Source: Candidatus Saccharimonadota bacterium (GTDB lineage: Archaea; Micrarchaeota; Micrarchaeia; Micrarchaeales; Micrarchaeaceae). Taken from it: DNA of 32,000 nt. The translations under genes were made by a program, and so were the position numbers. The stretch is taken from assembly GCF_002214165.1 (NCBI RefSeq), contig NZ_CP019964.1, forward strand, positions 420,001 through 452,000. The letters are read 5' to 3'. Within the stretch, counting starts at the first letter, position 1, and the number at the start of each line of letters is the position of its first letter. The notes beneath the pieces are model-generated. The model was not told the origin of the DNA. It was given only the letters and a program-made list of their open reading frames with translations, and did not search any database. Of this stretch, positions 6,962 to 30,344 are shown piece after piece.

Positions 6962-8143
6962 CTATTTATATTGTTCTTTATATATCTCCCTTATCCCTTT
7001 TGCAACAAACAGCTGATTCCTTGCCTTGCCTGTTTCTAATGGCTGTATTACACCTTCCTTGATAAGGTTATCAATAGCTCTTTTTGCAGTTGGATAGGTA
7101 ACATTTAGTATGTGTGATGTCGTATTTGCACTTATGATATAGGAAGCGAACAGCTGCTGAAAAAGTACATATGTTGACTTGCTGTACTTTTCTTCTATAT
7201 CCTTGCCTTTCTCATTATAATACTGGCTTAATTTGCTTATCTTGTCCAATACTATTTTAGATTGCGATATCGCTCCGATTAAAAAGAATTTTAGCCATTC
7301 TGAATAAGTTGAATTTTTGCTTATATCCCTGAGAAGCGAATAATATGCACTTCTGTTCTTCTCAAAGTAATCGCTCATATATAATAATGGGAGCTTTAAG
7401 GCCTTATTCTTTATCAGGTAAAGTATCAGCAAAAGCCTGCCTATCCTTCCATTGCCATCCAAAAATGGATGTATCGCTTCAAATTGGTAGTGCATAAGTG
7501 CAATTTTAACCAATATGGGATCATTGCTGCTATCCATATAATCAAGCATATTGGCAAGCAGCTCTTTTACCCTCTCTGGAGGTGGCGGTATGTAGGTTGC
7601 GTACTCTATGCCTATAGCGTTTTGATAATGCGAAATATAGTTCTGCACTTCCCTTATAGATCCTGGCTTTGCTTTCTCACCCCTGACATGCTGCAGCAGT
7701 ATTGAATGCAGTTTGGTTATCAGCTGCAAATCTATAGGTATTTGCTCGTTCATAAGGTTTATTCCTATTTCCTGGGCTTTTATATAATTCCTAACTTCCA
7801 ATATGTCATTCCTTTTCTCTTCGTCCAATATCTTTTGGCCTGCCTGCTCCTTGAACATGTCATCAAGGTTGCTCAAAGTGCCTTCTATCCTTGAGCTTTC
7901 AACAGCCTCGTTTTCAAGCTGCGGCCTTATGAACAGGTTTACATTATTGTGCAATACCTTATTTAGCTCAATTCCCGCACCATCCAATCTACCAAGCCAA
8001 GTGCTGGCCTCCGATAGTAATCTCAATAGTTCATTATCGTAATCTATCTTTACTGGAAGATTATCAGGTACGAATGTATAATATTGATTAGCACTATCGG
8101 GAAGAAGCTTGCCAGAAGGATTTTTAAATTCTTCAATATCCAT
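6962..8143 (-). CDS. Fic family protein (class II, N-terminal inhibitory helix, C-terminal wHTH-like domain)
   Basis: Canonical Fic motif HPFLDGNGRIGRLL. Upstream S-x-x-x-E-G inhibitory motif in VESSRIEGT. TAG stop. Confidence 0.9.
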   Translation of the reverse strand: MDIEEFKNPSGKLLPDSANQYYTFVPDNLPVKIDYDNELLRLLSEASTWLGRLDGAGIELNKVLHNNVNLFIRPQLENEAVESSRIEGTLSNLDDMFKEQAGQKILDEEKRNDILEVRNYIKAQEIGINLMNEQIPIDLQLITKLHSILLQHVRGEKAKPGSIREVQNYISHYQNAIGIEYATYIPPPPERVKELLANMLDYMDSSNDPILVKIALMHYQFEAIHPFLDGNGRIGRLLLILYLIKNKALKLPLLYMSDYFEKNRSAYYSLLRDISKNSTYSEWLKFFLIGAISQSKIVLDKISKLSQYYNEKGKDIEEKYSKSTYVLFQQLFASYIISANTTSHILNVTYPTAKRAIDNLIKEGVIQPLETGKARNQLFVAKGIREIYKEQYK

Positions 8144-9503: not shown

Positions 9504-10292
9504 TTATTTTAAAAGCGCTAGCAGGTAGCTTTTGACTTCGTTGTAATCTGGCGGGTTCCTTACCAGCCTGGACATTTCAGAATCCCACACCTTTCCTACA
9601 ATCTCTATTTTCTCTTTCAATCTCTCTAATGAAAATTCTTCATTATCTGTCCTGCCATAAAGTTGCATCTTTTTGCCGACAAGTTCAAGATTTGGCTTGG
9701 TATCGTATTTCCTGCACAGTATCCACGAATCGTACATATCCCTAGCTACCGGCTCCGTTCTCTCCATCAATGCTTTTATCTTGTCCGCCAACAGCTCGTT
9801 AACATCGAGCGAATTGATTATATAGGAAGGTATATCAGAATATATAGGCATCCTTGGCATATGCTTAACATCCATCATAGGTCTTTCAAATAGATTCATA
9901 TCTAAACCCAATGTTTGCACTGATTGCGGATTATTGGATATTGCATATAAAGGGCCCTTTATTTTAATCGTGTATTTTAACATATTCTTGTATTTTTCAA
10001 CTTTGAAATTTGCGTTGTACTGTAAGTTAATGCCTTTTATTGCCCTATTTATTAATTTTTTGATAACCTCAACTTCAGTAGGATTTTGTAATATGAAATC
10101 AAGGTCCTCTGAAAACCTTCCAGAGCCATACAATTTGGATATTGCCGTTCCTCCTCTAAATATTATATTTGTTGACCTATTGAATATTTGATATAGCATA
10201 AGCTCCTGTAAATAGTCTTTTTCGGCATCTTGTGTTTTAGGGAATCCGAGCCTATCCGCATAGGCCCTCCATTCTTTTGTCTCGTCTATCAT
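9504..10292 (-). CDS. abiEii: AbiEii/AbiGii-family nucleotidyltransferase toxin (type IV TA / abortive infection)
   Basis: Motif FRGGTAISKLYGSGRFSEDLDF is characteristic of the AbiEii NTase family. It follows the AbiEi-like gene directly (1-nt gap). Confidence 0.88.
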   Translation of the reverse strand: MIDETKEWRAYADRLGFPKTQDAEKDYLQELMLYQIFNRSTNIIFRGGTAISKLYGSGRFSEDLDFILQNPTEVEVIKKLINRAIKGINLQYNANFKVEKYKNMLKYTIKIKGPLYAISNNPQSVQTLGLDMNLFERPMMDVKHMPRMPIYSDIPSYIINSLDVNELLADKIKALMERTEPVARDMYDSWILCRKYDTKPNLELVGKKMQLYGRTDNEEFSLERLKEKIEIVGKVWDSEMSRLVRNPPDYNEVKSYLLALLK

Positions 10293-10293
10293 A

Positions 10294-10911
10294 TTATGAC
10301 CTAAATTTGATTTCTTTTACTTCTTTTTCAATTTTATTTATCTTTTCTTTTAGGTCCTTTGAGCCTATCCTCTTTATATATGATGAAAGCCTGCCTTTTT
10401 CAAGGATCCTTGATTCTTTTGCGTTTTCGTATGCTTCTTCTATATACGGAATCGGTAAATTGCCTATCAAAATTGCATCTATGATCGCTTTCTCAACATA
10501 TGCCACGAATGTGCCATCCTCTTTTGAGCGGTAGAACCCGAACATAAGCCTTCTTGGTATTTTGGTAAATATTATATTGTAACCTCCTATGCTAATGCCA
10601 TTGCTATGCCTTGCATCTGTCAATATATCAATTGCCGACAGGTTCTGCGTCGTTATCCCATAGTACTTGAACGCAGACATCATGCTAACATATGAAGGGT
10701 ATATTATATTGGATGCCACTGCATAAGGATTAGCATCTTTAAGATAATACTTGCCTTTTTCAATTCTTGAAATCTCTCCTCTATTTAACAATCTTGACAG
10801 GTAAAGCGATGTATATTTGATATCTTTATTCACAATCATTGAAGCTTCCTTAGTACTAAAAACAGGGATATTTAATGACTTTATCTCCTTTATAAATTGT
10901 AATTGATTCAT
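10294..10911 (-). CDS. abiEi: AbiEi-family antitoxin / transcriptional regulator
   Basis: 205 aa with an N-terminal wHTH-like segment (FSTKEASMIV...SLYLSRLLNRGEISRIEKGKYYL). Position upstream of abiEii. Confidence 0.75.
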   Translation of the reverse strand: MNQLQFIKEIKSLNIPVFSTKEASMIVNKDIKYTSLYLSRLLNRGEISRIEKGKYYLKDANPYAVASNIIYPSYVSMMSAFKYYGITTQNLSAIDILTDARHSNGISIGGYNIIFTKIPRRLMFGFYRSKEDGTFVAYVEKAIIDAILIGNLPIPYIEEAYENAKESRILEKGRLSSYIKRIGSKDLKEKINKIEKEVKEIKFRS

Positions 10912-16330: not shown

Positions 16331-16711
16331 TTAAGGCATTTCTAGGGAGCCCTTCAGATTTTGGAATAAACCGGAAATCTGGTCAATAATATCTTTATTA
16401 TCCAAATTGTACTCTTTAGATATTTGAGCGTAGTCTTTATATATAACGTAGCACCTTTTATTCTGCTCAATAATTAATATCTTCAATGGCAGTTCTATCC
16501 CCAATTCCGCATTTTTCTTCATAAGGATAGTCCCACCTTTGGCATTTCCGAATATGATAAGTTTGGAATTTATAAAATCCAATCCGGCATCCTTGGCGTT
16601 TTTACCATGATCCACGACACAGAATATTGTGAATCCTTTGGAATTTAAAAAATTTGTGATATTGTCAAAAGTACCTTCAAAATCATATTTGCTCTCAATT
16701 CTTACGTTCAT
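16331..16711 (-). CDS. DUF302 domain protein
   Basis: FTIFCVVDHGKNAKDAGLDFINSKLIIFGNAKGGTILM...LPLKILIIE matches the DUF302 pattern. I trimmed the tracked ORF (16831) to Met41 (ATG 16709-16711) because the upstream part overlaps the arsR promoter and start. Confidence 0.8.
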   Translation of the reverse strand: MNVRIESKYDFEGTFDNITNFLNSKGFTIFCVVDHGKNAKDAGLDFINSKLIIFGNAKGGTILMKKNAELGIELPLKILIIEQNKRCYVIYKDYAQISKEYNLDNKDIIDQISGLFQNLKGSLEMP

Positions 16712-16751
16712 TTTAACCAATATGAAAATGAAAAAGAAAAGTTTAATAATA

Positions 16752-16773
16752 CATATGATAAATTTATCATATG
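16752..16773. promoter_or_regulatory. Perfect 22-bp palindrome CATATGATAAATTTATCATATG in the DUF302/arsR divergent promoter (candidate ArsR-type operator)
   Basis: Read directly from the sequence. It overlaps the first candidate ATG of arsR (16771); a second in-frame ATG is at 16780. Confidence 0.6.
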
Positions 16774-17154
16774 ATAAAAATGTCATATAATAAACTTGAT
16801 GATCAATCCATTTCACTATTCTTTGGGGCAATAGCCAATCCCAAAAGATTTAGGATACTGGTAACACTAAATGAAAGAGGGCCAATGTGTGTTTCCCAGC
16901 TTGAAGAACTCCTTGGCATAGAGCAGTCCGATCTTTCGCATAACCTGCAGTGCCTGCTCAATTGCAGGTTTGTCAACAGGGAGCAGAGGGGAAAGGAGAA
17001 GGTCTACAGCTTAAACGAAGACATGAAGGTATTGGTTGATTCGATAAATAGCCATATAGAGGCTTATGACAGGTATATCAAATCATGCGAAATTGTAAAT
17101 GATAAAAATTTGGTCAAAGGCGTTGATAATGGAAAATTATCAAATTTGGCGTAA
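16771..17154 (+). CDS. ArsR/SmtB-family metalloregulator (likely mer-operon regulator)
   Basis: LFFGAIANPKRFRILVTL...MCVSQLEELLGIEQSDLSHNLQCL...VYSL is a typical ArsR wHTH. It lies directly upstream of merA on the same strand. The last 4 codons and the stop are supplied by the IS left end (see findings). Confidence 0.85.
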   Translation: MIKMSYNKLDDQSISLFFGAIANPKRFRILVTLNERGPMCVSQLEELLGIEQSDLSHNLQCLLNCRFVNREQRGKEKVYSLNEDMKVLVDSINSHIEAYDRYIKSCEIVNDKNLVKGVDNGKLSNLA

Positions 17155-17156
17155 AA

Positions 17157-17177
17157 CCCACACGCTTCAGCGGTGGG
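17157..17177 (+). repeat. IS left-end subterminal hairpin
   Basis: cccac-a-cgc-[ttca]-gcg-gtggg: 5+3 bp stem with an A bulge and a 4-nt loop. Confidence 0.7.
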
Positions 17178-17220
17178 ATATAAGCCACCGCAACAGTAGA
17201 AATAATTAGTATAAATAAAT

Positions 17221-18441
17221 ATGATCGTCATGAAAACTGCATACAAATATCGTGCATATCCTTCAAAGGAACAGAAGGGAACTCTGAATAGACAGATGTA
17301 TCTTTCAAAGGAACTATACAACCTGCTTCTTGAAAAGTCAAAGTCATACTATAATGAGACAGGAAAAACCTTAACGGAATTCAGGATGAACGTTTGGATA
17401 ACCAAATTAAAGAAGGAAAAACCGGAATTTGCGGAAATCCATTCTCAGGTGCTTCAGAATATCTCAAAAAGGGTGTCAGATGCATACAAACATTTTTTCT
17501 TGAGGTGCAAGGAGAAGAAGCAAGGAAAGAAGGTAAAGGCGGGATTTCCAAGATACAAGAAGTTCGTATCATCTTTGACATATCCTCAAACCAATGGCTT
17601 CAAGATAGAGAAGAAGAAGGTTGAACTTTCAAAAATAGGGAGGATAAATTTCGTGAACCACAGAAATATTGAAGGAGGAATAAAAACATTAAATATAAAG
17701 AAGACAAAATCACAGGAATGGTACATCACGATTGCTGTTGAAAAGGAGGACAAGCCATTCATTTCAAACGGTAAACCGAAGGTTGGTATTGATTTAGGAA
17801 TAATGCAATATGCCGCGCTTTCGGAAAATACAATACTCCAAAACGCAAAGATAACAAAACACCAGAGGAAACATTCAAGAGTCCTTCAACAAAACATATC
17901 GAGGAAAGAGAAGGGATCATCCAACAGAAGAAAGGCAGTGACAAGATTTGCAAGATACTCAGAGCATATTTCAAGGATAAGATTGGATTGCATACACAAG
18001 CTTTCAAATGAATTGGTGAATTCTTATTCATTCATTGCATACGAAGATTTAGAGATAAACAATATGGTGAAGAACCACAGATACGCAAAATCGATAAGTG
18101 AATCTTCTTGGGGAAATTTCACACAATTGCTGCAATACAAGGCTGAAAGCGCTGGTTGCGTGGCAATGAAAGTGAATCCTCAATACACATCAATGACATG
18201 CAGCAAATGTGGCAATGTGCAAAGCATATCGATATCCCAAAGAACATTCGTCTGCGAAAAGTGCGGGATGTCAATGGACAGGGATGTGAATGCGGCACAG
18301 AATATACTAAAGAGAGCTTTGAACTCCATCAGTCCAACTACCGAAGGGCATTCGGGAAGTCAAGCCTGCAGAGACGACATAAGACCTTCCGCAAGGGGGG
18401 CAGTTGCCTATGAAGCAGGAACTATATGGGTGGCATCATGA
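17221..18441 (+). CDS. tnpB: TnpB (OrfB) RNA-guided endonuclease of IS200/IS605 family
   Basis: N-terminal YKYRAYPSKEQ. RuvC triad contexts VGIDLG, IAYEDL and DRDVNAAQNI. Zinc finger CSKCG...CEKCG. Confidence 0.93.
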   Translation: MIVMKTAYKYRAYPSKEQKGTLNRQMYLSKELYNLLLEKSKSYYNETGKTLTEFRMNVWITKLKKEKPEFAEIHSQVLQNISKRVSDAYKHFFLRCKEKKQGKKVKAGFPRYKKFVSSLTYPQTNGFKIEKKKVELSKIGRINFVNHRNIEGGIKTLNIKKTKSQEWYITIAVEKEDKPFISNGKPKVGIDLGIMQYAALSENTILQNAKITKHQRKHSRVLQQNISRKEKGSSNRRKAVTRFARYSEHISRIRLDCIHKLSNELVNSYSFIAYEDLEINNMVKNHRYAKSISESSWGNFTQLLQYKAESAGCVAMKVNPQYTSMTCSKCGNVQSISISQRTFVCEKCGMSMDRDVNAAQNILKRALNSISPTTEGHSGSQACRDDIRPSARGAVAYEAGTIWVAS

Positions 18442-18517
18442 CGACAAATCATAACCACCTTGGAAGCCCACACTGTTTACAGGTGGGAGGATGTCACGAT
18501 TACATAATAATAGGGCA
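18330..18517 (+). ncRNA. Predicted TnpB omega RNA (reRNA): scaffold over the tnpB 3' end and RE, plus a ~20-nt guide read into merA
   Basis: By analogy with characterised TnpB systems. Extra stem ggtgg(18429-18433)/ccacc(18454-18458) plus the RE hairpin. The 5' limit is a guess and no expression data are available. Confidence 0.3.
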
Positions 18518-19898
18518 AGGAGCTGCTGCATTCTCCGCCGCCATAGAAGCCAATTCATTAGGGGCAAGGACATTGATGATTGGCAAGAACGAGACGGAAG
18601 GATCGCTCCTCGGTGGCACTTGCGTCAATGTTGGGTGCGTGCCAAGCAAGAGGCTTATCACGGTGGGGGAGTTCATCGATGATGTAAGGAAATCCAGATA
18701 TTACGGCGTTGATGCAGATGCAATCGTGGATTACTCAAAAGTGGTAGCGGAAAAGGACAAGCTTGTAAGCGGGATGAGATCCAAAAAGTACAAGGAGGTA
18801 CTGGACAAGCTTGCCAATGTTGATTTCGTAGATGGATTCGGTTCGTTAGGGGACTCTCATACCGTAATCGCCAATGGCAAGGAATACCATTCCAACCATA
18901 TACTTATAGCAACTGGAGCAAGGGCTTACATCCCGAGTATAAAAGGATTGGAAAGCATAAATCCACTGACCAACGAAGAAGCTCTTTCATTGAAAGACCT
19001 TCCCAGATCATTGATAATAATAGGGGGCAGGGCGATGGGGCTTGAATTCGCGCAGATGTTTTCGCATTTTGGCTCAAAGGTCACGGTCCTGCAGAGAAGC
19101 GGCACCATAATACCTGGATGGGAGCCCGTGCTGATAAGCAAGCTTGCCAATTATTTGAAGGATGACGGCATATCGGTAAACACCAATACTGCGATAAACG
19201 AAGTTGGGAAAGATGGCGGTGAAGAGTTTGTCAAGGCATCGGTAAACGGCAAGGAGGCAATATTCAAGGCCGAACGCATAATGTTTGCAACAGGAAGGCA
19301 GCCGAATGTAGAAAAGCTAAACTTGGGCGCAATCGGCTTGAAGACCGATGAAAAAGGGTTCATACAAATAAACAGCAAAATGGAAACAAACGTGCCCGGG
19401 ATATATGCGGCAGGCGATGTTACAGGAGAGCCAATGCTAGAGACTCTCGCAGGCAAAGAAGGTAAGATAGCGACGGACAACATGTTCACAAGGAATACCA
19501 AAGAGATAGATCTTAATGAAGTGCCACAGGCGATCTTCACGATGCCAGAGGCAGCGATGGTCGGATTGACAGATGACCAGGCACACGGGAAGGGGATAAA
19601 GTGCAGCTGCAATTCAATACCTTTTTCGATGATCCCCAAGGCCTCGATAATCGGGGATGAGAGAGGTGTCATAAAGGTTGTAATAGACTATGCAACCAAG
19701 CGCATATTAGGAGTCAGCATACTTTCTAGGAATGCGGCGGACTTAATAGCCGAAGCCACTTTGGCGGTGAAGTTCAAGCTTACAATAGATGACATCATAG
19801 ATACGGTGCACGTGTTTCCGACACTGAGCGAAGCGTTCAAGCTCGCATCGCAGAACTTCTACCAGGATATATCGAATATGAGCTGCTGCACAGCATAA
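18426..19898 (+). CDS. merA: Mercuric reductase MerA (core enzyme, no NmerA domain)
   Basis: DYIIIGQGAAAF (FAD fold), redox-active GGTCVNVGCVPSK, and a C-terminal vicinal Cys pair NMSCCTA diagnostic for MerA. Start is uncertain (ATG 18426, ATG 18438 or GTG 18483); all three lie inside the IS right end. Confidence 0.9.
   Translation: MGGIMTTNHNHLGSPHCLQVGGCHDYIIIGQGAAAFSAAIEANSLGARTLMIGKNETEGSLLGGTCVNVGCVPSKRLITVGEFIDDVRKSRYYGVDADAIVDYSKVVAEKDKLVSGMRSKKYKEVLDKLANVDFVDGFGSLGDSHTVIANGKEYHSNHILIATGARAYIPSIKGLESINPLTNEEALSLKDLPRSLIIIGGRAMGLEFAQMFSHFGSKVTVLQRSGTIIPGWEPVLISKLANYLKDDGISVNTNTAINEVGKDGGEEFVKASVNGKEAIFKAERIMFATGRQPNVEKLNLGAIGLKTDEKGFIQINSKMETNVPGIYAAGDVTGEPMLETLAGKEGKIATDNMFTRNTKEIDLNEVPQAIFTMPEAAMVGLTDDQAHGKGIKCSCNSIPFSMIPKASIIGDERGVIKVVIDYATKRILGVSILSRNAADLIAEATLAVKFKLTIDDIIDTVHVFPTLSEAFKLASQNFYQDISNMSCCTA
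18467..18487 (+). repeat. IS right-end subterminal hairpin
   Basis: cccac-a-ctg-[ttta]-cag-gtggg: same architecture and feet as the left-end hairpin. Confidence 0.7.
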
Positions 19899-19909
19899 GG
19901 TGAAGATCT

Positions 19910-20440
19910 TTGATTGGTTCGGCATTGAAATTTGTTTACAGCGAAAAACGCTATCTCCTATCAACCATAGCTATTGCAATCCTTATGGGTGCCCTTTATT
20001 ACTATTTAGTCCATATTGGAGGGCTATTCTACCCTATAATATTCGGCTCTATAGCGCTTGGCGAAATAACTGATATAGCAGGGTTCGCCTTGATATCCGT
20101 GTTGATGGGAATATCAATATCAATGCAGATATACTCCTATAAATTGACAAGATTGGACGATTCAAAGGGCGAGACTGCGATCGCGGTGATAACAGGGGTT
20201 TTTGCGCAAGGGCTATGCTGCACCCCGATAGTGGGAAGCCTCTTGGCCATGCTTGGGCTGTCAACATCTGCCTTGCTAACACTATCCGGCGCTATAAGCC
20301 ATACCTTTGCAGTGCTTGAGCCTATCCTGATAATCGCATCCATATTGCTCCTTCTTTACAGCATAAGGTCAACGGCAAAATCCCTGCTTTACTGCAGCAA
20401 GAGGGAGCTAAAGATTTCGCAAAAGACAAAAGGCGGATAA
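19910..20440 (+). CDS. Polytopic membrane protein with intramembrane vicinal cysteines (GLCCTPIVG); candidate Hg(II) transporter-like protein
   Basis: 4-5 predicted helices. The CC-x-P motif inside helix 3 resembles the MerT/MerF/MerC CCxxP signature. TTG start 11 nt after the merA stop. Confidence 0.65.
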   Translation: MIGSALKFVYSEKRYLLSTIAIAILMGALYYYLVHIGGLFYPIIFGSIALGEITDIAGFALISVLMGISISMQIYSYKLTRLDDSKGETAIAVITGVFAQGLCCTPIVGSLLAMLGLSTSALLTLSGAISHTFAVLEPILIIASILLLLYSIRSTAKSLLYCSKRELKISQKTKGG

Positions 20441-20441
20441 A

Positions 20442-21011
20442 ATGAAAAAGGTAAAAACTTTGTATAAACTAATGGCAATCGTGGTGATAATTGCGGCGGC
20501 CGTACTGCTGTACATGTATTCGGCAGGCACGTTTTCGCATAAAGTGTCCGCGGAAATCCTTTCCGCCGGAGAAAAGGCCCCAAATGAAAGCTTCACTCTG
20601 CTGAATGGGTCAACCGTGAATATAGGCAATTACCGAGGTAAGCCAATACTTGTCTGGCTTATGACCACTTGGTGCAGCTCCTGCGCCCAAAGCACATCGA
20701 CAATAGCGAATAATATGACCTTCTTCAAAGACCACAATGTAACAGTCTTTGAAATTGAAAATTACGAGGATCTTGGCCAAAGCGGCATGGCAATAGGCCC
20801 GTTTATAGATTATTATGCGCATAATTCGACAGGAGCGGATATGATAAAAGGAGGAATATCGTCAAAAGGGCTTACATTCACTTACAACCCTAAAGGATAT
20901 CTTGACATATACTACCTCATAGCCCCAAACGGAACAATCTATTATATAAATGGGAGCCCGGTGATAACGATGAATGATTTGAAGCAGGAGGTAACAAGGC
21001 TGGAGAGCTGA
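20442..21011 (+). CDS. Membrane-anchored thioredoxin-fold protein (TlpA/ResA/redoxin-like, WCxxC)
   Basis: N-terminal anchor LMAIVVIIAAAVLLYMY. GKPILVWLMTTWCSSCAQ active-site motif. The start lies 1 nt after the preceding stop. Confidence 0.8.
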   Translation: MKKVKTLYKLMAIVVIIAAAVLLYMYSAGTFSHKVSAEILSAGEKAPNESFTLLNGSTVNIGNYRGKPILVWLMTTWCSSCAQSTSTIANNMTFFKDHNVTVFEIENYEDLGQSGMAIGPFIDYYAHNSTGADMIKGGISSKGLTFTYNPKGYLDIYYLIAPNGTIYYINGSPVITMNDLKQEVTRLES

Positions 21012-21861: not shown

Positions 21862-23232
21862 TTACAGTATTGACCTTGCCGCAGCAGATATGCCCTCGTT
21901 TGTTGTTGGGTGCTGGTCCGCGTAATCCGCGATCTGCCTTGCGCCCAATCCGTTTGCAACGGCAATCCCCAATTCGTTTATCAATGATGGCGAGTCTATC
22001 CCTATGACCCATGCTCCTATAGCCCTCAATGATCCTTTTTCAAAGAATATCCTTATCTCTCCCGGCAACTCATCGTACATCTGCGCTTTTGCGTCATTCT
22101 TGAACTTATAGATTCCTTCAAGATAATCTATCCCTCTTGCCTTTGCCGTGATTGGCGTAATTCCCACATATGATATTGGAGGGAATGTGAATATTGTAAT
22201 AGGTACCGCATCTGAATCAAAATAATCGATAGGCTTCCCGTTTGCCATTATATTGTTGGCAGCAACTATCGATTGCCTTACAGCCGAATGGAAATACGGC
22301 GACTTTCCATTGACATCCCCTGTTGCATAGATGTTTTGGATATTGGTTTTCATAGATTCGTTTACCTTCACAAATCCTCTTCCATCAATCTCCACTCCCG
22401 CTTTTTCTATTCCCTCTGGAAGCACGGGCTTTCTTCCTGTTGCCAATAGCACCATATCAGCAGCAAGCCACTTCTTGTTGCCTTGGCCGTCGGAGTAATG
22501 CACTACCTTCCTGCCCTCCTTTTCTTCCACGTTCTCAAGAGGCGAATTCATCTGTATGTCTATACCTTTGTCCATGTTGTCATTCAGGCCCGAAACCAAA
22601 TAAGGCTCAACCCTGCCCAATAGATTTCCACCCCTTACCAACATATGCACTTTTGATCCCAGTATAGTGTACATTGTTGCAACCTCCAATGCAATATATC
22701 CTCCGCCTATTATCGCTATTTCAGATGGCAGTGATCTTATACTTGATTTGTAAGTGAACAGGTCATCGCTTGTTATACAGTATTCTGATCCTGGAAATTC
22801 TACCTTGTTTGGTGTGGTGCCTGTCCCTATTATAATGTATTTTGCTTCGACTTCGTTGTCTCCTATCAATGCATGGTTCGAATCTTTCAATACGGCCTTT
22901 TCCGCTATGAACCTTATGTTCTTAAAATTCTTCAAGTCATTGGAATGCTGCAAGAAACGCGTCTCCTGCACATAATCTTTATGGTCCTGTATAAGGGAAT
23001 AGTCGATGCTTATCTTCTGCTTTAAGACTCTCTCCGTCCTTTCCTTAAGCTGCGCCATCTCCCTTACTGTTTTTGAAGGTATGCACCCCATGTAAAGGCA
23101 GTTTCCGCCAAGCTTGCCTTTTGGGTCTGCCATTATCACATTATACCCTGACTCGGCTAGCCTAAAAGCGGCAGGATAGCCGGCACCTCCTCCACCGATT
23201 ACAAGAACATCTGCTTTCTCCATTTCAATCAC
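21862..23232 (-). CDS. FAD-dependent pyridine nucleotide-disulfide oxidoreductase, dihydrolipoyl dehydrogenase-like
   Basis: VLVIGGGGAGYPAAF, redox CxxxxC GGNCLYMGCIPSK, NAD fold IAIIGGGYIALE, and C-terminal H-P-T-x-x-E (HPTTNEG). It lacks the MerA C-terminal CC pair. Confidence 0.85.
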   Translation of the reverse strand: MIEMEKADVLVIGGGGAGYPAAFRLAESGYNVIMADPKGKLGGNCLYMGCIPSKTVREMAQLKERTERVLKQKISIDYSLIQDHKDYVQETRFLQHSNDLKNFKNIRFIAEKAVLKDSNHALIGDNEVEAKYIIIGTGTTPNKVEFPGSEYCITSDDLFTYKSSIRSLPSEIAIIGGGYIALEVATMYTILGSKVHMLVRGGNLLGRVEPYLVSGLNDNMDKGIDIQMNSPLENVEEKEGRKVVHYSDGQGNKKWLAADMVLLATGRKPVLPEGIEKAGVEIDGRGFVKVNESMKTNIQNIYATGDVNGKSPYFHSAVRQSIVAANNIMANGKPIDYFDSDAVPITIFTFPPISYVGITPITAKARGIDYLEGIYKFKNDAKAQMYDELPGEIRIFFEKGSLRAIGAWVIGIDSPSLINELGIAVANGLGARQIADYADQHPTTNEGISAAARSIL

Positions 23233-23371
23233 TTATATTAATAGATGGAATTTTATAAAAAATTAACATTTAAAAATCAAGTATTCTAAATTAAACTTTA
23301 TTTTATATTTTGCAGTAAATAAAGGGATACAGGAAGCTTTATAATTAGGATTGCCAATTATATTGATAAGC

Positions 23372-24232
23372 ATGAAAATTTTGTCACTGCCCTCTTCAAT
23401 AGGGCTTGCTTCTAAAATTGCAAAAAATATAGGCTGTGGCGTGGCTGATTATAAATTGACAAGATTTCCGGACAATGAGATCTACACCAAGATAGATACG
23501 CCACTTGATGGAGAAGACGTTGTAGTTATCGGGAATACCAACACCGATTCCGATATAATGTCTTATTTATTCCTGCTTGATGCGGCAAAAGAGCAGAACC
23601 CGAAGAGATTAATTGCATTAATGCCATATTTTGGATACGCAAGGCAGCACAGGGTTTACAATAGAGGGTAGGCAATCGCGTCAAAGGTGATGGCACAGTC
23701 TATAGCGAACTCAGCGGACATGATGGCTGCGATAGAGCTCCATGATGAGCAGACTTTGAGCTATGTCTCCAAGCCCTTTGCAAACCTTAAGATAAAAAAC
23801 CCAATATATAATTTCTTCAAAGGCAAATCCATTGACTACGTAATATCCCCGGATGACGGCGGCTATTCCAGATCTCTTGACATGGCAAACCTTTTGGGGC
23901 GCAAGGCCTACTACATAGACAAAAAAAGGATGGATGCAAATACCGTGGAAATGAGACTGCCGGAAGTTGAATTCGAGGATAAGAACATACTTCTATTGGA
24001 TGACATGATATCAACAGGAAATACGATGGTTAGCGCTATAGACCTGATTTCGGACAAAGGAGCGGGCAGCATATACTGCTGTGCCATCCATGGGATATTT
24101 GCGGGAGAAAGCGATAGGAGGATAAAGGAAAAGGCGGACGGGCTTGTTGTCACAGATACGATACAGAGTGAGTACAGCAAGCTTTCAGTAGCCGAAGATG
24201 TAATTGCATACCTCAGGTCCATTGGCATTTAA
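23372..24232 (+). pseudogene. prs: Ribose-phosphate pyrophosphokinase (PRPP synthetase) interrupted by one in-frame TAG at 23669-23671
   Basis: Tracked ORFs 23351..23671 and 23687..24232 are in the same frame. Read-through gives PYFGYARQHRVYNRG*AIASKVMAQSIAN, with the stop where the family normally has Glu. Downstream motif ILLLDDMISTGNTM (PRPP loop). The likely start is ATG 23372. Confidence 0.85.
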
Positions 24233-25693
24233 GTGCTGAAATCAACGCTTTTGTGGTCCTCCGTAAGCCACTTCCATATAGGGACCAGCTTTATTTTTTT
24301 ACCTTTTATGCTTATCTTATCCTCTATATCCCAGGTTATTATTATTAAATTTTTACAATTCTGCTCGGTGCTTGCTTTTACCAAAGAATTGGTTTCCCTT
24401 TCCTTAATCTCATCAATTGATGAAGCATAAGTTACCTGTATCAAAGAATCTGTCTTGCCATCTTTTCTAAGCAAGAAATCAACTTCCAAATCTGAAGCAT
24501 CCTTCCAATAATACAATGAATAATTATTATTCCAATACTTGATTCTCCTCATCAATTCAACAGCGACTACATTTTCCATCAACCTTCCTTTGTCCTCCTT
24601 GCTCTTGAAATTTACAGCACATGCTATTCCAGTATCTGTAACATATAATTTCCTTGGCGCTTTCATGCTCTCTTTGAGCTTTGCTGAGAACCTTTCAATT
24701 CTGACATCATCCCACGATTAAATATCGTGGGCTTTCTGCTATGCATTTTGTAAATATAAGATAGGAATTTGAGATATAACTTACCCATTTGCTTATCGTG
24801 TTTGGTGTTTTCATGCCAACTATATTTTTTAGCTTGTTGTAAGTTATTTCATTTGAAAAGTTGGATAGAAGGTAATCTGAGAGCAATTTAAATTCGCTTG
24901 GATAACTGATTGAATATCTATGAGGGACATCTCTCTGAATTATATCTGAGTATAATTGCAATAGGTAATTGCTGCCTTCAACTAGAGCTAATGGAATGCC
25001 TCCTATCTGCATGTACTCCTGCAGGCTATCAATGATCTTTGAATGCCATTCACTCGTATATCTTTTCGTTTTTATATCAAATGATTTGTAATCTAGAAAT
25101 TCCTTAAAACTAAATGGGAATAATATAAAATCTATATGCCTGCCAACAAGATATGTAGCTAACTCTTTGTTCATTAGCCTTGCATTGCTGCCTGTTATTA
25201 TAACTTTTTTAGATATTGAGATTGAATTTACAAATCTCTCCCATCCTTATATGTTCTGTATTTCATCAAATATTATATTTTCAGTATTGCTATTCAATTA
25301 GTACATAGCTTCCAATACCTGATTTAGATCTTCAGCCTTTATGGAAATCCCAGGATCATCAAAATTTATATAAGAAAACTTACCTTCTGAGAATATCAAT
25401 TCCGCCAGTACCGACTTGCCGCACCTTCTTATCCCTGTTATTATCCCCACAATACCGTTTCCAAGTAAATTTTCATTTATCGACAGATAACTTTTTATTA
25501 TATGCCCTGAGAGCAGTTTATTAATTGATTCGTTCTGATCCGCAATAACTCTTACAATGATATCCTTAGGCACTATGATAATGTTATAGGTATAAATTTT
25601 TAATAATCTTTGTAGCGGCATTGCAAAGATTAGATAAAATATTTGTATTGACATTACTAAGATTGATAAGATTGTATGTATTATACCATACAT
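24229..25693 (-). pseudogene. AAA ATPase with DUF4143 C-terminal domain, disrupted (two in-frame TAA stops plus one frameshift)
   Basis: Walker A GIITGIRRCGKS. IIFDEIQNI*GWERFV has its stop at 25247-25249, and a further stop lies at 25298-25300. ...ITGSNARL...GRHIDFILFPFSFKEF. A frame change near 24706-24745 precedes RFSAKLKESMKAPRKLYVTDTGIA. The likely original start is ATG 25621. Confidence 0.8.
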
Positions 25694-27188: not shown

Positions 27189-30100
27189 TCAGGGTGCTAC
27201 GAAATACTGCTCTTTCCTTAGTAAGCTTGTTTCTATATGCTCTGCAAACACATCATTTCCAAGCTTCTTGATGGAGATTGTTTTTTTGTTGAACCCCGCA
27301 TTGCCAATCACATCATTTACCCACTCCCTGTTTGATACACGCCCCGTATTGATTACCACAGGGACATTGAAGTGCTTTGCAAGATCCTTAATCATTTCTG
27401 GAAGTGCCTTTTGTACTTCTATCCCTGGATAGAATGAAGAGAGGAACTCAAGCGAATCTATGAAAAGCATGGGCTTTCCGTCAACCTCCGCCGCAAAGCA
27501 GTATGTCCTTCCTATTGGCTGAGGTACATCCTCAAGCTTCTCCTTCCAGTAGAAGTTCAGTATCAATGTCGCAGGATCCTTTACCCATCTAAAGTTTGCA
27601 TCGAAGTGGATTCCCGAATAATCACTTTCGTTCGGTGGGGCTGTGCAGTCTCCGCTGTACCTGCCCCCGAATATATCATCCAGTGACCTTTTCCAGCTCT
27701 TTATGGTGAGTACTCCTGCAGTTGGCAGGGATTTGTCAAGCTTTTCCGAATCCTCGGATATTGTATTGAGGTATAAACCGAACAGCATCCTTCTTCCAGG
27801 CGAGTCCACGATGAACATGTCAGGATCAGTCATGTATTGGTATATATTGCTCAGCGCCTCGTCCGCCTTCTTTATATATAATTCCATTTCCTCTTTTGGC
27901 ATCTCCGCCCCTTCCATTAACGACCTCCTCGCTTCCTCCAATGCATTTTCCTGATCGCCTATCTTCTCCCTGTAATATTTGGATGCCATTACACCTTCAA
28001 CGGCATTTAGGATCCTCCCGTATGAGTATAGGGCATCGCCTTTGTTCTCATCCGCAATGTTGTTAATGTCTTTTTCAATTTTTTTCAGGCCTTTTGCAAG
28101 GAATATTGCCTTTTGGAAATTGACACTTTCGGGGTTGTCATCAATATCAGATTTTCCGACAATATAGTCGATCCTGCTGCGTAGGCCTCTTCCAACGCTA
28201 TTTCTGAGGGACGCAAGTTCGGTTTGGATTTGCCCCAGTGCCTGTGGTACGTCAACCGCATTTTCAGGAAAAACCCCTTTTATGATGCTTATAGAATCGG
28301 AGATTATTTTACTGGTCTCTTCTCTTGTGAGCTCTTCAGTTTTCTTTTCCTGATGAAGATCATATGTCTTAATATACTGTTTGTTGAATTCTGGCAATAA
28401 GCTATCTATATGTTTGAATTCATCGATGTGCAGTTCACTCGGGTTGCTTCTTCTTTTCAATGACTCGACCAAAAATTCAGGGGTGAACATATTCTTGTTT
28501 TCCCAAACAAGTCTCAGAATCTTTATCCCTCCCCACCCTTCAACAGATTTTGGCAAACCCTTGAGGTTATTGAAATAGGAATTTGCCCCATTTACTATTA
28601 TATTGTCTATTTTCCCTTTTTCTCCTGAGAACAAGGTTTCAAAATCCTCTTTTGTTTTGATGAAATTGGATGCAATAGATAGGTACTCTACGGACCCTCC
28701 CGTCCTGCTGTAAAGTTTCACTATCCTGTCAAATTTTGCTTCGTCAATGCTGCCTAGATTACCATTTTCTATAGTTTCGAGGTTTTTTATTAGATTTGAC
28801 CATCCTAGCACTTCAGCTTTAAACCTATTGGGGTCTTTAGATGCGTTCTCAAATTTGATAAGCCTAATAATTGGATCTTCCAAGAAAGTAAGGCCTTTGT
28901 TAAGATTATGGTTATCCGAATAATATAGTATATTAGCTATTCCCGTTAAGATATCCATAAAATCGTTCATGGTATATGAATCCTTTAGCCATGAAAGAAA
29001 TACTTCATCAGTTAGCTCTTTGGCAGCCTTTGTCTTTCTTATCGCACGGAAGTATTCGAAGGAAGCATTATAGCCAACATACCTTGCAAAGTCCCTTACC
29101 CGTTCACTGGTGAGCTCCGCGACTGCCTTTGTCATACCTATCGCATAGAAGTATTGATAGGAAGAGTCTCCACCAATCGAATCTACAAAATTTGTTATTG
29201 TCTCGTTGATGACTTCACCGCTTGTGAGCTCAGCGACTGCCTTTGAGTCGGCCATTGCACGGAAGTAGCCATATACATTATTGTTGCCTAATGAAATTGC
29301 AAAGTCCCTTACTCTTTTGCTGGTGAGTTCCTTTACGGCTCTAGTCATGCCGATCGCATAGAAGTATCTATTTGAACCATAACTGCCTATGGATTTTATA
29401 AAATTTACCGTTCCTTCATTTACGACTTCACCGCTTGTGAGCTCCGCGACTGCCTCTGTGTACCCTATCGCATTGAAATATTCCGAAGCGGAAGTTCTTC
29501 CTATCAGATTGATGAAATCTGCTATCCTTTTGCCGATAACCTCTTTGCTGGTGAGCTCCTTGACGGCTTTGGTGCTTTCTATTGCACTGAAATATTTATC
29601 GATATTGCTTCCGAGAGACTTTGCAAAGTCTATTACTTCACCGCTTGTGAGCTCCTTGACGGCTTTCGTCTTTCCTACTGCTCCAAAATATTCATATCCA
29701 AAACTGTTATTGGACAGATTTATGAAATCTGCTATTCTCCTATTGGCAATTTCCTCACTGGTGAGCTCCGCGACTGCCTTGGTGCTGCCCACTGCATAGA
29801 AATATTTATCGACGTTTATGCCGATTAATTTTGCAAAATCAAAAACTCTTTTGCTAGTGAGCTCCTTTACGGCCTTGGTGGTCCCAACCGCATTGAAGTA
29901 TTCAAAATTGGAATAATTACCTATTAGATTTATGAAATCTGCAGTTTTCTTATTGGTGAACTCCTCGCTTGTGAGCTCCTTGACTGCCTTTGTATTTTCG
30001 ATTGCATAGAAGTATCCGTAGGAATTATTTACACCGATTGAATTTGCAAACTTCATTGTCCTTTCGCTGGTGAGCTCCTTGACGGCCTTGGTGCTCCATA

Positions 30101-30344
30101 TTGCATGGAAGTATCTATATCTAGTGTCTCTTTGGTCTAAAGACTCGACAAAGTCTAGAATCTCGGATAACCTCTTATCCGCTTCACTTGGATCAAAATT
30201 TTCCTTAAGGTAATCCGTAATCAGTTTAGCGGTATCGTTATCACTTAATCTGGATAAGCCGGCAATTTTTGCATTGGTATCATCTAATAATTGCCTTTCG
30301 GTAAAGCCATCATTTATTTTGGTTTTATTCTTGGGCATTTTCAT
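27189..30344 (-). CDS. Large (1051 aa) cytoplasmic tandem-repeat protein: 11 helical repeats + ~350-aa helical middle + ~250-aa C-terminal alpha/beta domain of unknown function
   Basis: No signal peptide or TM helix and no P-loop. Repeats have the core YFxAIxxTKAVKELTS. The C-terminal region contains FGGRYSGDCTAPPNESDYSGIHFDANFRW and GKPMLFIDSLEF. Confidence 0.8.
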   Translation of the reverse strand: MKMPKNKTKINDGFTERQLLDDTNAKIAGLSRLSDNDTAKLITDYLKENFDPSEADKRLSEILDFVESLDQRDTRYRYFHAIWSTKAVKELTSERTMKFANSIGVNNSYGYFYAIENTKAVKELTSEEFTNKKTADFINLIGNYSNFEYFNAVGTTKAVKELTSKRVFDFAKLIGINVDKYFYAVGSTKAVAELTSEEIANRRIADFINLSNNSFGYEYFGAVGKTKAVKELTSGEVIDFAKSLGSNIDKYFSAIESTKAVKELTSKEVIGKRIADFINLIGRTSASEYFNAIGYTEAVAELTSGEVVNEGTVNFIKSIGSYGSNRYFYAIGMTRAVKELTSKRVRDFAISLGNNNVYGYFRAMADSKAVAELTSGEVINETITNFVDSIGGDSSYQYFYAIGMTKAVAELTSERVRDFARYVGYNASFEYFRAIRKTKAAKELTDEVFLSWLKDSYTMNDFMDILTGIANILYYSDNHNLNKGLTFLEDPIIRLIKFENASKDPNRFKAEVLGWSNLIKNLETIENGNLGSIDEAKFDRIVKLYSRTGGSVEYLSIASNFIKTKEDFETLFSGEKGKIDNIIVNGANSYFNNLKGLPKSVEGWGGIKILRLVWENKNMFTPEFLVESLKRRSNPSELHIDEFKHIDSLLPEFNKQYIKTYDLHQEKKTEELTREETSKIISDSISIIKGVFPENAVDVPQALGQIQTELASLRNSVGRGLRSRIDYIVGKSDIDDNPESVNFQKAIFLAKGLKKIEKDINNIADENKGDALYSYGRILNAVEGVMASKYYREKIGDQENALEEARRSLMEGAEMPKEEMELYIKKADEALSNIYQYMTDPDMFIVDSPGRRMLFGLYLNTISEDSEKLDKSLPTAGVLTIKSWKRSLDDIFGGRYSGDCTAPPNESDYSGIHFDANFRWVKDPATLILNFYWKEKLEDVPQPIGRTYCFAAEVDGKPMLFIDSLEFLSSFYPGIEVQKALPEMIKDLAKHFNVPVVINTGRVSNREWVNDVIGNAGFNKKTISIKKLGNDVFAEHIETSLLRKEQYFVAP
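29004..30113 (-). repeat. In-frame tandem coding repeats (11 units of 32-33 or 38 aa)
   Basis: Repeat starts (YF) fall at residues 78, 111, 149, 181, 219, 251, 289, 327, 360, 398 and 431. At DNA level there are recurring gtgagctcc(t/g)(t/c)gac(g/t)gc blocks. Confidence 0.85.

Follow-up and report, generated by a model that had tools for sequence, protein, structure and literature searches.

This analysis concerns a 32,000-nucleotide stretch of an archaeal genome (contig NZ_CP019964.1 of assembly GCF_002214165.1, forward-strand positions 420,001 to 452,000; GTDB phylum Micrarchaeota), referred to below as the window. Within it, a gene for mercury(II) reductase (merA) is followed on the same strand by two further open reading frames (ORFs), ORF1 and ORF2, which encode a membrane protein with four transmembrane (TM) helices and a membrane-anchored thioredoxin-fold protein, respectively. 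ORF1 carries a vicinal cysteine (CC) pair, and its family is called CC-4TM here. The two proteins are considered as a candidate module for Hg(II) capture and transfer to MerA. The features that bear on this proposal, in window coordinates, are as follows.

18426–19898, forward strand: merA, mercury(II) reductase without an NmerA domain (TIGR02053, active site, C-terminal motif, and start comparison)
19910–20440, forward strand: ORF1, CC-4TM four-TM membrane protein of 176 amino acids with a TTG start, proposed Hg(II) relay (family profile and AlphaFold2 model)
20213–20227, forward strand: LCCTP motif of ORF1, residues 102–106, proposed Hg(II)-binding vicinal dithiol (conservation, helix break in the AlphaFold2 model, and alignment with Cys24-Cys25 of MerT)
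20393–20395, forward strand: Cys162 of ORF1, proposed cytoplasmic hand-off thiol in a Lys/Arg-rich tail about 10 residues past TM4 (tail Cys in 63 of 65 copies)
20442–21011, forward strand: ORF2, membrane-anchored extracytoplasmic ResA/TlpA-like thioredoxin fold of 189 amino acids with an ATG start, proposed Hg(II) capture (Pfam, NCBIfam, PDB, and hhalign)
20466–20522, forward strand: signal-anchor helix of ORF2, about residues 9–27, after an N-terminal MKKVK (hydropathy maximum 2.47; confident AlphaFold2 helix 2–27)
20670–20684, forward strand: WCSSC active-site motif of ORF2, residues 77–81 (W, C, and C invariant in 54 partners)
20904–20906, forward strand: Asp155 of ORF2, invariant, directly before the beta-strand IYYLI (hhalign and HMMER comparison with ResA)

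Judged by its sequence, the 490-codon ORF at 18426–19898 encodes a bona fide mercuric reductase. The score against the TIGR02053 MerA model is 531 bits (cutoff 454, so that equivalog level is reached), and the product combines the redox site CVNVGC (CxxxxC) with a C-terminal SCCTA that supplies the pair Cys487-Cys488. A first-pass annotation of the window, made from the letters and an ORF list, had described two genes packed tightly behind merA, and the coordinates of the six-frame ORF list confirm this: ORF1 starts 11 nt past the merA stop and ORF2 1 nt past the ORF1 stop, with a GGTGA Shine-Dalgarno-like motif upstream of the TTG start of ORF1. Gaps of this size indicate co-translation of merA, ORF1, and ORF2. 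The same annotation had noted that merT, merP, merC, and merF were missing, and indeed no homolog of MerT, MerP, MerC, MerF, or MerE was detected among window ORFs of at least 50 amino acids. No ORF with a heavy-metal-associated (HMA) domain and no small two-TM MerT/MerF-like ORF was seen in the window, and Pfam scans gave the other main window ORFs functions unrelated to mer.

ORF1 has no match in Pfam or NCBIfam, and neither a PDB sequence profile search nor a Foldseek search with its predicted model returned a meaningful relative (the best Foldseek E-value in PDB was not below 1.3). Four close relatives were found by a word-indexed search and 46 representative clusters by an exhaustive phmmer search (E ≤1e-3, 50% identity), while a family profile search retrieved 172 proteins, all named entries of which read “hypothetical protein.” On this sequence evidence, ORF1 is a member of an unannotated membrane family. 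Cys103 and Cys104 lie within the segment AQGLCCTPIVGSLL, and conservation of the pair, for which a check had been suggested, is high: among 47 family representatives, Cys104 occurs in 100% and Cys103 in at least 90%, the family consensus reads LCCTPxxPSLLAxxGxST, and the pair is kept in all 65 copies from the loci surveyed below. A Cys or CC at the C terminus likewise belongs to the consensus; of the 65 copies, 63 have at least one tail Cys, with C-x5-C in 16, C-x4-C in 12, CC in 6, and a single Cys in 22, including the window. A separate motif in the N-terminal half of the family was considered and rejected, as Tyr30 alone is near-invariant there.

An AlphaFold2 model of ORF1 built on the 47-sequence alignment (predicted local distance difference test score [pLDDT] 80, predicted template modeling score [pTM] 0.70) comprises a short N-terminal helix and four long helices. 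Of the “4-5” helices first counted, the model supports four and not five. The vicinal cysteines fall within a helix, as had been observed, namely, TM3, which is interrupted at CCTP (helices 87–104 and 107–114). By the distribution of Lys and Arg residues, the N terminus, the 78–86 loop, and the C-terminal tail with Cys162 are assigned to the cytoplasm, and this topology would place the CC pair in the outer half of TM3.

ORF2 contains TTWCSSCAQ, with Cys78 and Cys81, and matches the Pfam families Redoxin (31 bits, cutoff 26.6) and AhpC-TSA. Its scores lie below the NCBIfam cutoffs for ResA (49.5 vs 170), TlpA (22 vs 230), and DsbE (15.6 vs 123); its best PDB sequence matches are ResA, Etrx, TlpA, DsbF, and Mpt53, and the ORF2 family aligns with ResA at an hhalign probability of 98.9%. 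Together with the hydrophobic helix at about residues 9–27, these matches bear out the N-terminally anchored thioredoxin fold of the first-pass annotation. A single-sequence AlphaFold2 model is poor overall (pLDDT 40), with helix 2–27 confident. ORF2 has seven N-x-S/T sequons, equivalent to 3.7 per 100 amino acids compared with 0–1.4 in ten other counted window proteins, and this density, along with the MKKVK-anchor helix, indicates an N-in, domain-out topology. The protein shares the thioredoxin fold, WCxxC, and anchor of TlpA/ResA/DsbE-type proteins and lacks their cis-proline loop; nor does it have the HMA fold with GMTCxxC found in MerP.

Nearly all redox-active thioredoxin folds have a cis-proline, and where it is lost, CxxC can bind metal, as reportedly described by Su et al. 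(Biochemistry, 2007). In most members of the ORF2 family, including ORF2 itself (YLDIYY), the residue before the beta-strand is Asp and not Pro, and Asp155 is invariant in a diverse 17-sequence alignment of the family. Its placement relative to CxxC is alignment-based alone: hhalign sets Asp155 on the cis-Pro141 of ResA, while HMMER puts it just after that column, as a one-residue insertion.

Some archaeal ORF2 variants are extended by further domains. Cytoplasmic C2H2-type zinc fingers precede the anchor in haloarchaea and in two Thermoplasmata metagenome-assembled genomes (MAGs), a C-terminal DUF3105 occurs in haloarchaea, and a second CxxC domain in Marsarchaeota (coordinates in the surveyed loci: L043 3593–4918, L039 5174–5905, L041 4922–5914, and L042 2463–3905). 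In addition, many bacterial loci (L007–L035, e.g., L010 7130–7777) encode a second, divergent thioredoxin paralog (GGCASC, ...PDDYFLID) right after the first.

The genomic context of the CC-4TM family was surveyed across 61 non-redundant loci, which comprised the closest relatives of the window, 37 loci from species-representative genomes, 19 metagenome loci, a Halobacterium plasmid locus, and two proteobacterial plasmid loci, and in which every ORF was searched with local HMMER. Loci were gathered with narrow alignment subsets, such that the sampling leans to the LCC[TS]P[VI][VI]PT and CCT[TS]xxPS subfamilies. True MerA was defined by at least 255 bits, CVNVGC, and a C-terminal SCC, within a distance limit of 6 kb; all matches of at least 255 bits on complete ORFs had the C-terminal SCC, and nearly all had CVNVGC. 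The pairing of the two genes is obligate: in 57 of the 61 loci, the CC-4TM gene has an ORF2 homolog as its same-strand neighbor, and of the other four, three stop at a contig edge and one has a 337-nt gap. Genes of the mer system are enriched around the pair. True MerA is encoded within the distance limit in 28 loci (17 of the 35 with at least 2.5 kb on both sides), where a rough estimate of chance proximity gives approximately 0.1 locus, and MerA, MerB, or MerR is encoded nearby in 31 (MerB in 8, MerR in 8). The first-pass annotation had allowed for homologs that lie overwhelmingly away from mer genes, which at these counts is not so. An ArsR gene adjoins the CC-4TM gene in 27 loci. Canonical transporters were represented across the 61 loci by one weak MerT match (1.4e-4), no MerC, and three MerP matches, all of which were the NmerA domain of MerA. 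Only one CcdA-like ORF was found across the loci (L032, approximately 5.3 kb from the CC gene), and no cytochrome c or Msr genes were noticed near the pair, neither these nor cytochrome-maturation neighbors having been specifically searched for.

Gene order around the pair varies. Of the three closest relatives, two have arsR-CC-trx (L001/L002 and L003/L004), and the third shares the order of the window, arsR-merA-CC-trx (L005). Elsewhere, we found CC-trx-arsR-merA (L051–53, L059), arsR<>CC-trx-merA (L048, L055), merR<>merA-trx-CC (L064, L065), merA-small2TM-CC-trx-trx (L010, L011, L018), and merB-merA<>arsR-small2TM-trx-CC (L043). That the neighborhood is kept despite this reshuffling points to functional coupling. 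The loci belong to Thermoplasmata, Marsarchaeota, Halobacteria, Actinomycetota, Dormibacterota, and Pseudomonadota. Two cultured organisms, Acidithiobacillus ferrooxidans YQ-N3 and Acidiphilium multivorum AIU301, have plasmids on which merR<>merA-redoxin-hypothetical makes up the complete operon; the 173-amino-acid “hypothetical” proteins are clear CC-4TM family members (E = 6e-32 and 2e-34), and the trx-CC pair is the sole transporter candidate in these mer operons.

The survey also brought to light other recurrent neighbors. In 23 loci, a small two-TM protein is encoded directly upstream of the CC-4TM gene; it has LCCGGP in TM1, RRRR, and a C-terminal CC, and no Pfam or NCBIfam match (e.g., loci within L006–L036, such as L015 5543–5884 and L010 ~5580–5850, L043 3008–3241, and L066 2257–2601). 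By hhalign, it resembles MerT (94%) and MerF (92.5%), and it is similar to the “MerT” annotated on Mycobacterium marinum plasmid pMM23. Within L006–L036, in 19 actinobacterial or Dormibacterota loci, the CC-trx pair is flanked by genes for a BlaI-like repressor (Penicillinase_R) and for a membrane protease of the M48/M56 type that resembles BlaR1, often with no mer gene. On the A. ferrooxidans plasmid (L064 6048–6641), the CC gene is followed by a gene for a Met-/His-rich secreted protein (MMNGMMGQSMSHMDMHGMM...) that has the look of a Cu/Ag-type metal binder.

Upstream of merA, the window holds two further features of the cluster.

16771–17154, forward strand: ArsR/SmtB-family metalloregulator, likely an Hg-responsive repressor (Pfam HTH_5, NCBIfam HTH_metalloreg, and Cys signature)
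17137–18497, forward strand: TnpB-only insertion sequence (IS) of IS200/IS605 type, 1.36 kb, between arsR and merA, with tnpB at 17221–18441 (NCBIfam guided_TnpB, 274 bits)

The window ArsR has conserved Cys61, Cys65, and Cys106, that is, a C-x3-C in the recognition region and a third, C-terminal Cys. This three-Cys signature is common to the window, L001, L003, and L005, and the ArsRs of mer loci on M. marinum pMM23, a Pseudonocardia plasmid, and a Halobacterium plasmid share it. Because the signature matches that of known mer regulators, it suggests that the arsR-CC-trx clusters without merA may also respond to Hg(II) or a similar soft metal. Divergent from arsR, a DUF302 protein is encoded at 16331–16831 (reverse strand); from the listed TTG start, its ORF would share 61 nt with arsR, so translation probably begins at an internal Met (MNVRIES...).

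Both neighbors of the IS element extend into it: arsR takes its last 6 codons from there, and the merA ORF its first 24, start codon included. Related MerAs begin MEFDYAIIGQG, and comparison with them indicates that the native merA start has been replaced; a GTG at 18483 may be the functional start. In L005, arsR directly abuts merA, with no insertion between them. In L003, a GT2 gene is interrupted by another IS copy, which shares 77% identity with the window element over 1392 aligned columns. Similar imperfect subterminal hairpins lie at the ends of the window element (CCCACACGCTTCAGCGGTGGG and CCCACACTGTTTACAGGTGGG, near 17157–17177 and 18468–18488). The IS-derived extension of merA includes a C-x5-C (CLQVGGC). 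The IS element is not part of the module, yet may affect its expression.

We propose that ORF2 and ORF1 act together as a two-protein module in which Hg(II) is captured and relayed to MerA, a counterpart of MerP plus MerT in operons regulated by ArsR and, in some cases, by MerR; on balance, the evidence tips modestly in favor of this reading. An Hg(II) uptake and hand-off module analogous to MerT plus MerP had been suggested from the window alone, and it gains support from the family-wide conservation, the mer context, the minimal plasmid operons, and the ArsR signature. With regard to metal binding by ORF1 and ORF2, the direction of transfer, and the phenotype, we infer the following course. 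Binding of Hg(II) to the three ArsR cysteines would release the operon. ORF2, anchored by its N-terminal helix with the thioredoxin fold outside, would then hold Hg(II) between Cys78 and Cys81, where replacement of the cis-proline beside CxxC by the invariant Asp should favor metal binding over disulfide exchange. By thiol ligand exchange, Hg(II) would pass to Cys103-Cys104 of ORF1 at the modeled proline kink of TM3, from there to Cys162, and on to Cys487-Cys488 of MerA for reduction to Hg(0), by analogy with MerT and MerF.

A more specific likeness to MerT emerged from hhalign, which lays TM3–TM4 of the ORF1 family on TM1–TM2 of MerT, with CC on CC, GxS on GFSG, and EP on LEPY. The probability is 68% with a single sequence and 84% (score 38.6) with a MerT profile that is shallow (Neff 1.5), the retrieved MerT sequences all being at least 82% identical. 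In controls, reversed sequences scored 21.6–23.1, and 60 block shuffles gave a mean of 15.3 (standard deviation 3.7, maximum 25.2). Homology between ORF1 and MerT is plausible but unproven.

Several observations weigh against the proposed relay or its kinship with MerT. The MerT probability drops to 42% with the alignment of all loci and to 1% with a bacterial-only alignment (in an unchanged register), comparison of the ORF1 family with the small MerT-like proteins of actinobacteria gives no match (2.6%), and the Pfam MerT model (PF02411) matches one of the 47 family members (E = 0.0047) and not ORF1 itself. About half of the loci (30 of 61) have no MerA, MerB, or MerR nearby, a BlaI/BlaR1-like pair flanks the CC-4TM gene in 19, and the two closest relatives of the window, L001 and L003, lack merA. 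The 23 loci with a small MerT/MerF-like protein, many of them bacterial, co-encode a protein that means CC-4TM need not transport there. The window ORF1 has one tail cysteine only. In the ORF2 family, the two aligners differ by one residue in the placement of Asp for cis-Pro, and a few members read Pro-Asp; the nearest solved relatives of ORF2 are reductases that usually work with a membrane electron carrier encoded next to them, which is the position of ORF1.

The pair may instead be a reductant relay, the main rival explanation, though an unlikely one in our estimate. ORF1 would then be a minimal analog of CcdA/DsbD that passes electrons from its tail cysteine via the CC pair to ORF2, and ORF2 would keep exofacial thiols reduced or repaired under Hg or oxidative stress, with Hg as inducer and not as cargo. 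The closest solved relatives of ORF2 (ResA, TlpA, Etrx, and DsbF) are CcdA-dependent reductases, CcdA and ResA are classically encoded in this way, with a TlpA-like gene after that for the membrane protein, a Pseudonocardia mer locus has a genuine CcdA in that place next to a thioredoxin of the same subfamily, and half of the loci are without mer genes. Yet ORF1 is unlike both CcdA and DsbB (hhalign probabilities of 1.7% and 0.1%), Foldseek finds no membrane oxidoreductase for it in PDB, and its cysteines are vicinal. In known membrane electron carriers, the cysteines form a CxxC or lie on different helices and are not vicinal, whereas CC-x-P in a TM helix is a signature of MerT, MerF, and MerH. 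The ORF2 family moreover has no cis-proline at the position aligned to Pro141 of ResA, the single cytoplasmic Cys of the window ORF1 is poorly suited to two-electron transfer, and the mer-linked CcdA itself has a MerF-like C-terminal CC tail. A generic CcdA/VKOR-like disulfide relay was the alternative named in the first-pass annotation; the lack of similarity to CcdA or DsbB weakens it, and it stays as a rival.

It is rather improbable that the two genes form a general module against soft metals or envelope thiol stress (Cu(I), Ag(I), Cd(II), As(III), or electrophiles) that was occasionally recruited to mer operons. The 30 loci without MerA, MerB, or MerR and the 19 beside BlaI/BlaR1-like regulators would fit such a role, as would the fusion of the haloarchaeal thioredoxin to DUF3105 and zinc fingers, the Met-rich protein after the pair on the A. 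ferrooxidans plasmid, and the many source MAG names that suggest acid-mine and other multi-metal sites. However, mer genes are the only recognizable metal-specific genes near the pair, and the ten largest conserved neighbor clusters contain no Cu, As, or Cd genes, for which no systematic search was made; the ArsRs beside the pair share the mer-type three-Cys signature, also at loci without merA, and the small two-TM proteins encoded along with it are MerT/MerF-like. Finally, ORF1 and ORF2 could be unrelated housekeeping genes that happen to lie behind merA in this genome alone. The two closest relatives do lack merA between arsR and ORF1, and the window locus was rearranged by the IS insertion, but the pairing recurs in six lineages, MerA lies near it in several orders of genes, and the short gaps indicate co-translation. 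Coincidence is effectively refuted by the context survey, and we give it almost no weight.

If the Hg(II) module is accepted, the pair is probably a Mer transport module in which a modified thioredoxin fold is joined by a MerT-like membrane family that has no annotation; full-text literature searches yielded no description of this four-TM family. Mer transporters have been reported as absent from Archaea save for one MerP homolog (Boyd and Barkay, PMC3466566), and in mer operons ArsR shows an inverse correlation with each of the known transport functions (PMC3466566). Should the pair be the missing uptake system, the gap in archaeal Hg transport would close, a large unannotated membrane family would gain a function, and a thioredoxin subfamily would be redefined as a metal-handling protein. 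Metagenomes from acid-mine, geothermal, and hypersaline sites could then be better annotated for mer functions, and new parts would become available for bioremediation or biosensing of Hg at low pH. A broader reading, which is conceivable although we lean slightly away from it, is that of a second, MerP/MerT-independent Hg(II) entry route, on which archaea, acidophiles, and ArsR-regulated mer operons would chiefly rely. Its components would be a thioredoxin fold turned Hg(II) metallochaperone, with an invariant Asp replacing the cis-proline beside WCxxC, and one of two unrelated membrane partners on which this chaperone docks: in Actinobacteria, a CcdA derivative whose C-terminal tail carries CC, and otherwise the four-TM CC family, which would either have branched off early from the MerT hairpin or have come to resemble it by convergence. 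Such a route, if true, would overturn the view of archaeal mer systems as lacking dedicated transport. The proposed uptake role of the pair is directly testable, since the module is carried on plasmids of the cultured A. multivorum AIU301 and A. ferrooxidans.

Other parts of the window were annotated along with the cluster. A second pyridine nucleotide-disulfide oxidoreductase (21862–23232, reverse strand), convergent to the cluster, lacks the C-terminal CC and scores 587 bits against the dihydrolipoyl dehydrogenase model NF004943; its gene keeps the same position in L003, which has no merA. A ribose-phosphate pyrophosphokinase is split over two ORFs (23351–23671 and 23687–24232; Pribosyltran_N and Pribosyltran), as a pseudogene or through a sequencing frameshift, and an AAA_14/DUF4143 ATPase (24229–25174, reverse strand) is broken into at least two ORF fragments, with an intact homolog syntenic in L003. 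Genes for a Fic/DOC protein and an AbiEi/AbiEii toxin-antitoxin pair lie at 6962–8143 and 9504–10911 (reverse strand), in a region with several ORFs that have no Pfam match and with a GC content of 0.27–0.34 compared with 0.42–0.47 around the mer cluster; these genes, the Pfam-less ORFs, and the low GC content suggest that this region is mosaic or mobile. An ORF of 1051 amino acids (27189–30344, reverse strand) has no Pfam match.

Among known systems, the CcdA-ResA/TlpA/Etrx relays have the same layout as ORF1-ORF2, in that a membrane-protein gene stands beside a gene for an anchored TlpA/ResA-like protein. The differences are that neither the sequence nor the predicted fold of ORF1 relates it to CcdA, that an invariant Asp stands on or next to the cis-Pro position in the ORF2 family, and that the surroundings of the pair are mer genes. 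CcdA and DsbD are six-TM inverted repeats with one Cys each in TM1 and TM4 (PCxxP), whereas ORF1 has four TM helices and a vicinal CC. The identification of ORF1 as CcdA was rejected on the low score against the mer-linked CcdA given above and with no Pfam DsbD match, as were DsbB, MerC, and MerE (hhalign ≤2.3%). The SAO selenoprotein system of Haft (bioRxiv 10.1101/2022.07.06.499078) was likewise set aside as a different system.

MerH of M. marinum pMM23 (~170 amino acids) resembles ORF1 in its four TM helices, its CC pair, and its position directly downstream of merA, but its CC lies in TM1 and not TM3, and it has no thioredoxin partner; ORF1 was rejected as a MerH (hhalign 0.7%). MerF (PDB 2M67 and 2LJ2) and the small actinobacterial “MerT” share with ORF1 a CC-x-x-P in the first helix of a hairpin and C-terminal cytoplasmic cysteines, and the ORF1 family aligns with MerF at 65% over the CC helix. 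These proteins have two TM helices and 80–145 amino acids, in contrast to the four-TM ORF1, and because a small two-TM protein and CC-4TM are encoded together in 23 loci, the two do not appear to be interchangeable.

For the thioredoxin component, the Pseudonocardia mer locus (merB-merA-small2TM-arsR<>TlpA-CcdA) provides a parallel, with the thioredoxin subfamily of ORF2 beside a CcdA that has a C-terminal ACCP tail. Its layout resembles the merAB and merRTP operons of Streptomyces lividans (PMC5312570, PMC3698927), which are divergent (PMC5312570), and actinomycete “mercury transporter” entries in GenBank include proteins with TrxA or CcdA domains (PMC12195606, Table 4). The Pseudonocardia TlpA-like thioredoxin aligns with the ORF2 subfamily at 98% and has LDTKIF, with LD for the cis-Pro motif, and YCVPC where ORF2 has WCSSC, so that an aromatic residue precedes C-x-x-C in both; its membrane partner is CcdA, unlike the four-TM ORF1 with its vicinal CC. 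MerT and MerP of S. lividans are presumably CcdA-like and thioredoxin-like, respectively, an assignment checked on the Pseudonocardia locus only. A thioredoxin-like mer component thus has precedent; its four-TM partner does not.

The closest comparison is with MerT plus MerP of Tn501/Tn21, in which, as in ORF1 plus ORF2, a membrane protein and an extracytoplasmic CxxC partner are encoded beside merA. The first-pass annotation had remarked that the folds differ. This holds for the partner, as MerP is a soluble ferredoxin-like HMA domain and ORF2 a membrane-anchored thioredoxin fold, and not for the CC hairpin of ORF1, which resembles that of MerT. By AlphaFold2 and hydropathy, ORF1 does not share the three TM helices of MerT with CC in TM1: it has two extra N-terminal helices, a CC hairpin at TM3–TM4, and no equivalent of the third MerT helix. 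Both proteins do have a vicinal Cys pair with a Pro in a TM helix (CC-x-x-P in MerT). Each also has at least one cytoplasmic Cys about 10 residues past the next helix, C76-x5-C82 in MerT and C-x4/5-C or, as in the window protein and 21 others, a single Cys in the ORF1 family, and the tails of the bacterial CC-4TM members (WWSLRRVAxAAC-x5-C) compare with FAWRRIYRPAQAC76-x5-C82 of MerT. The functional parallel proposed between ORF1 and MerT is well founded.

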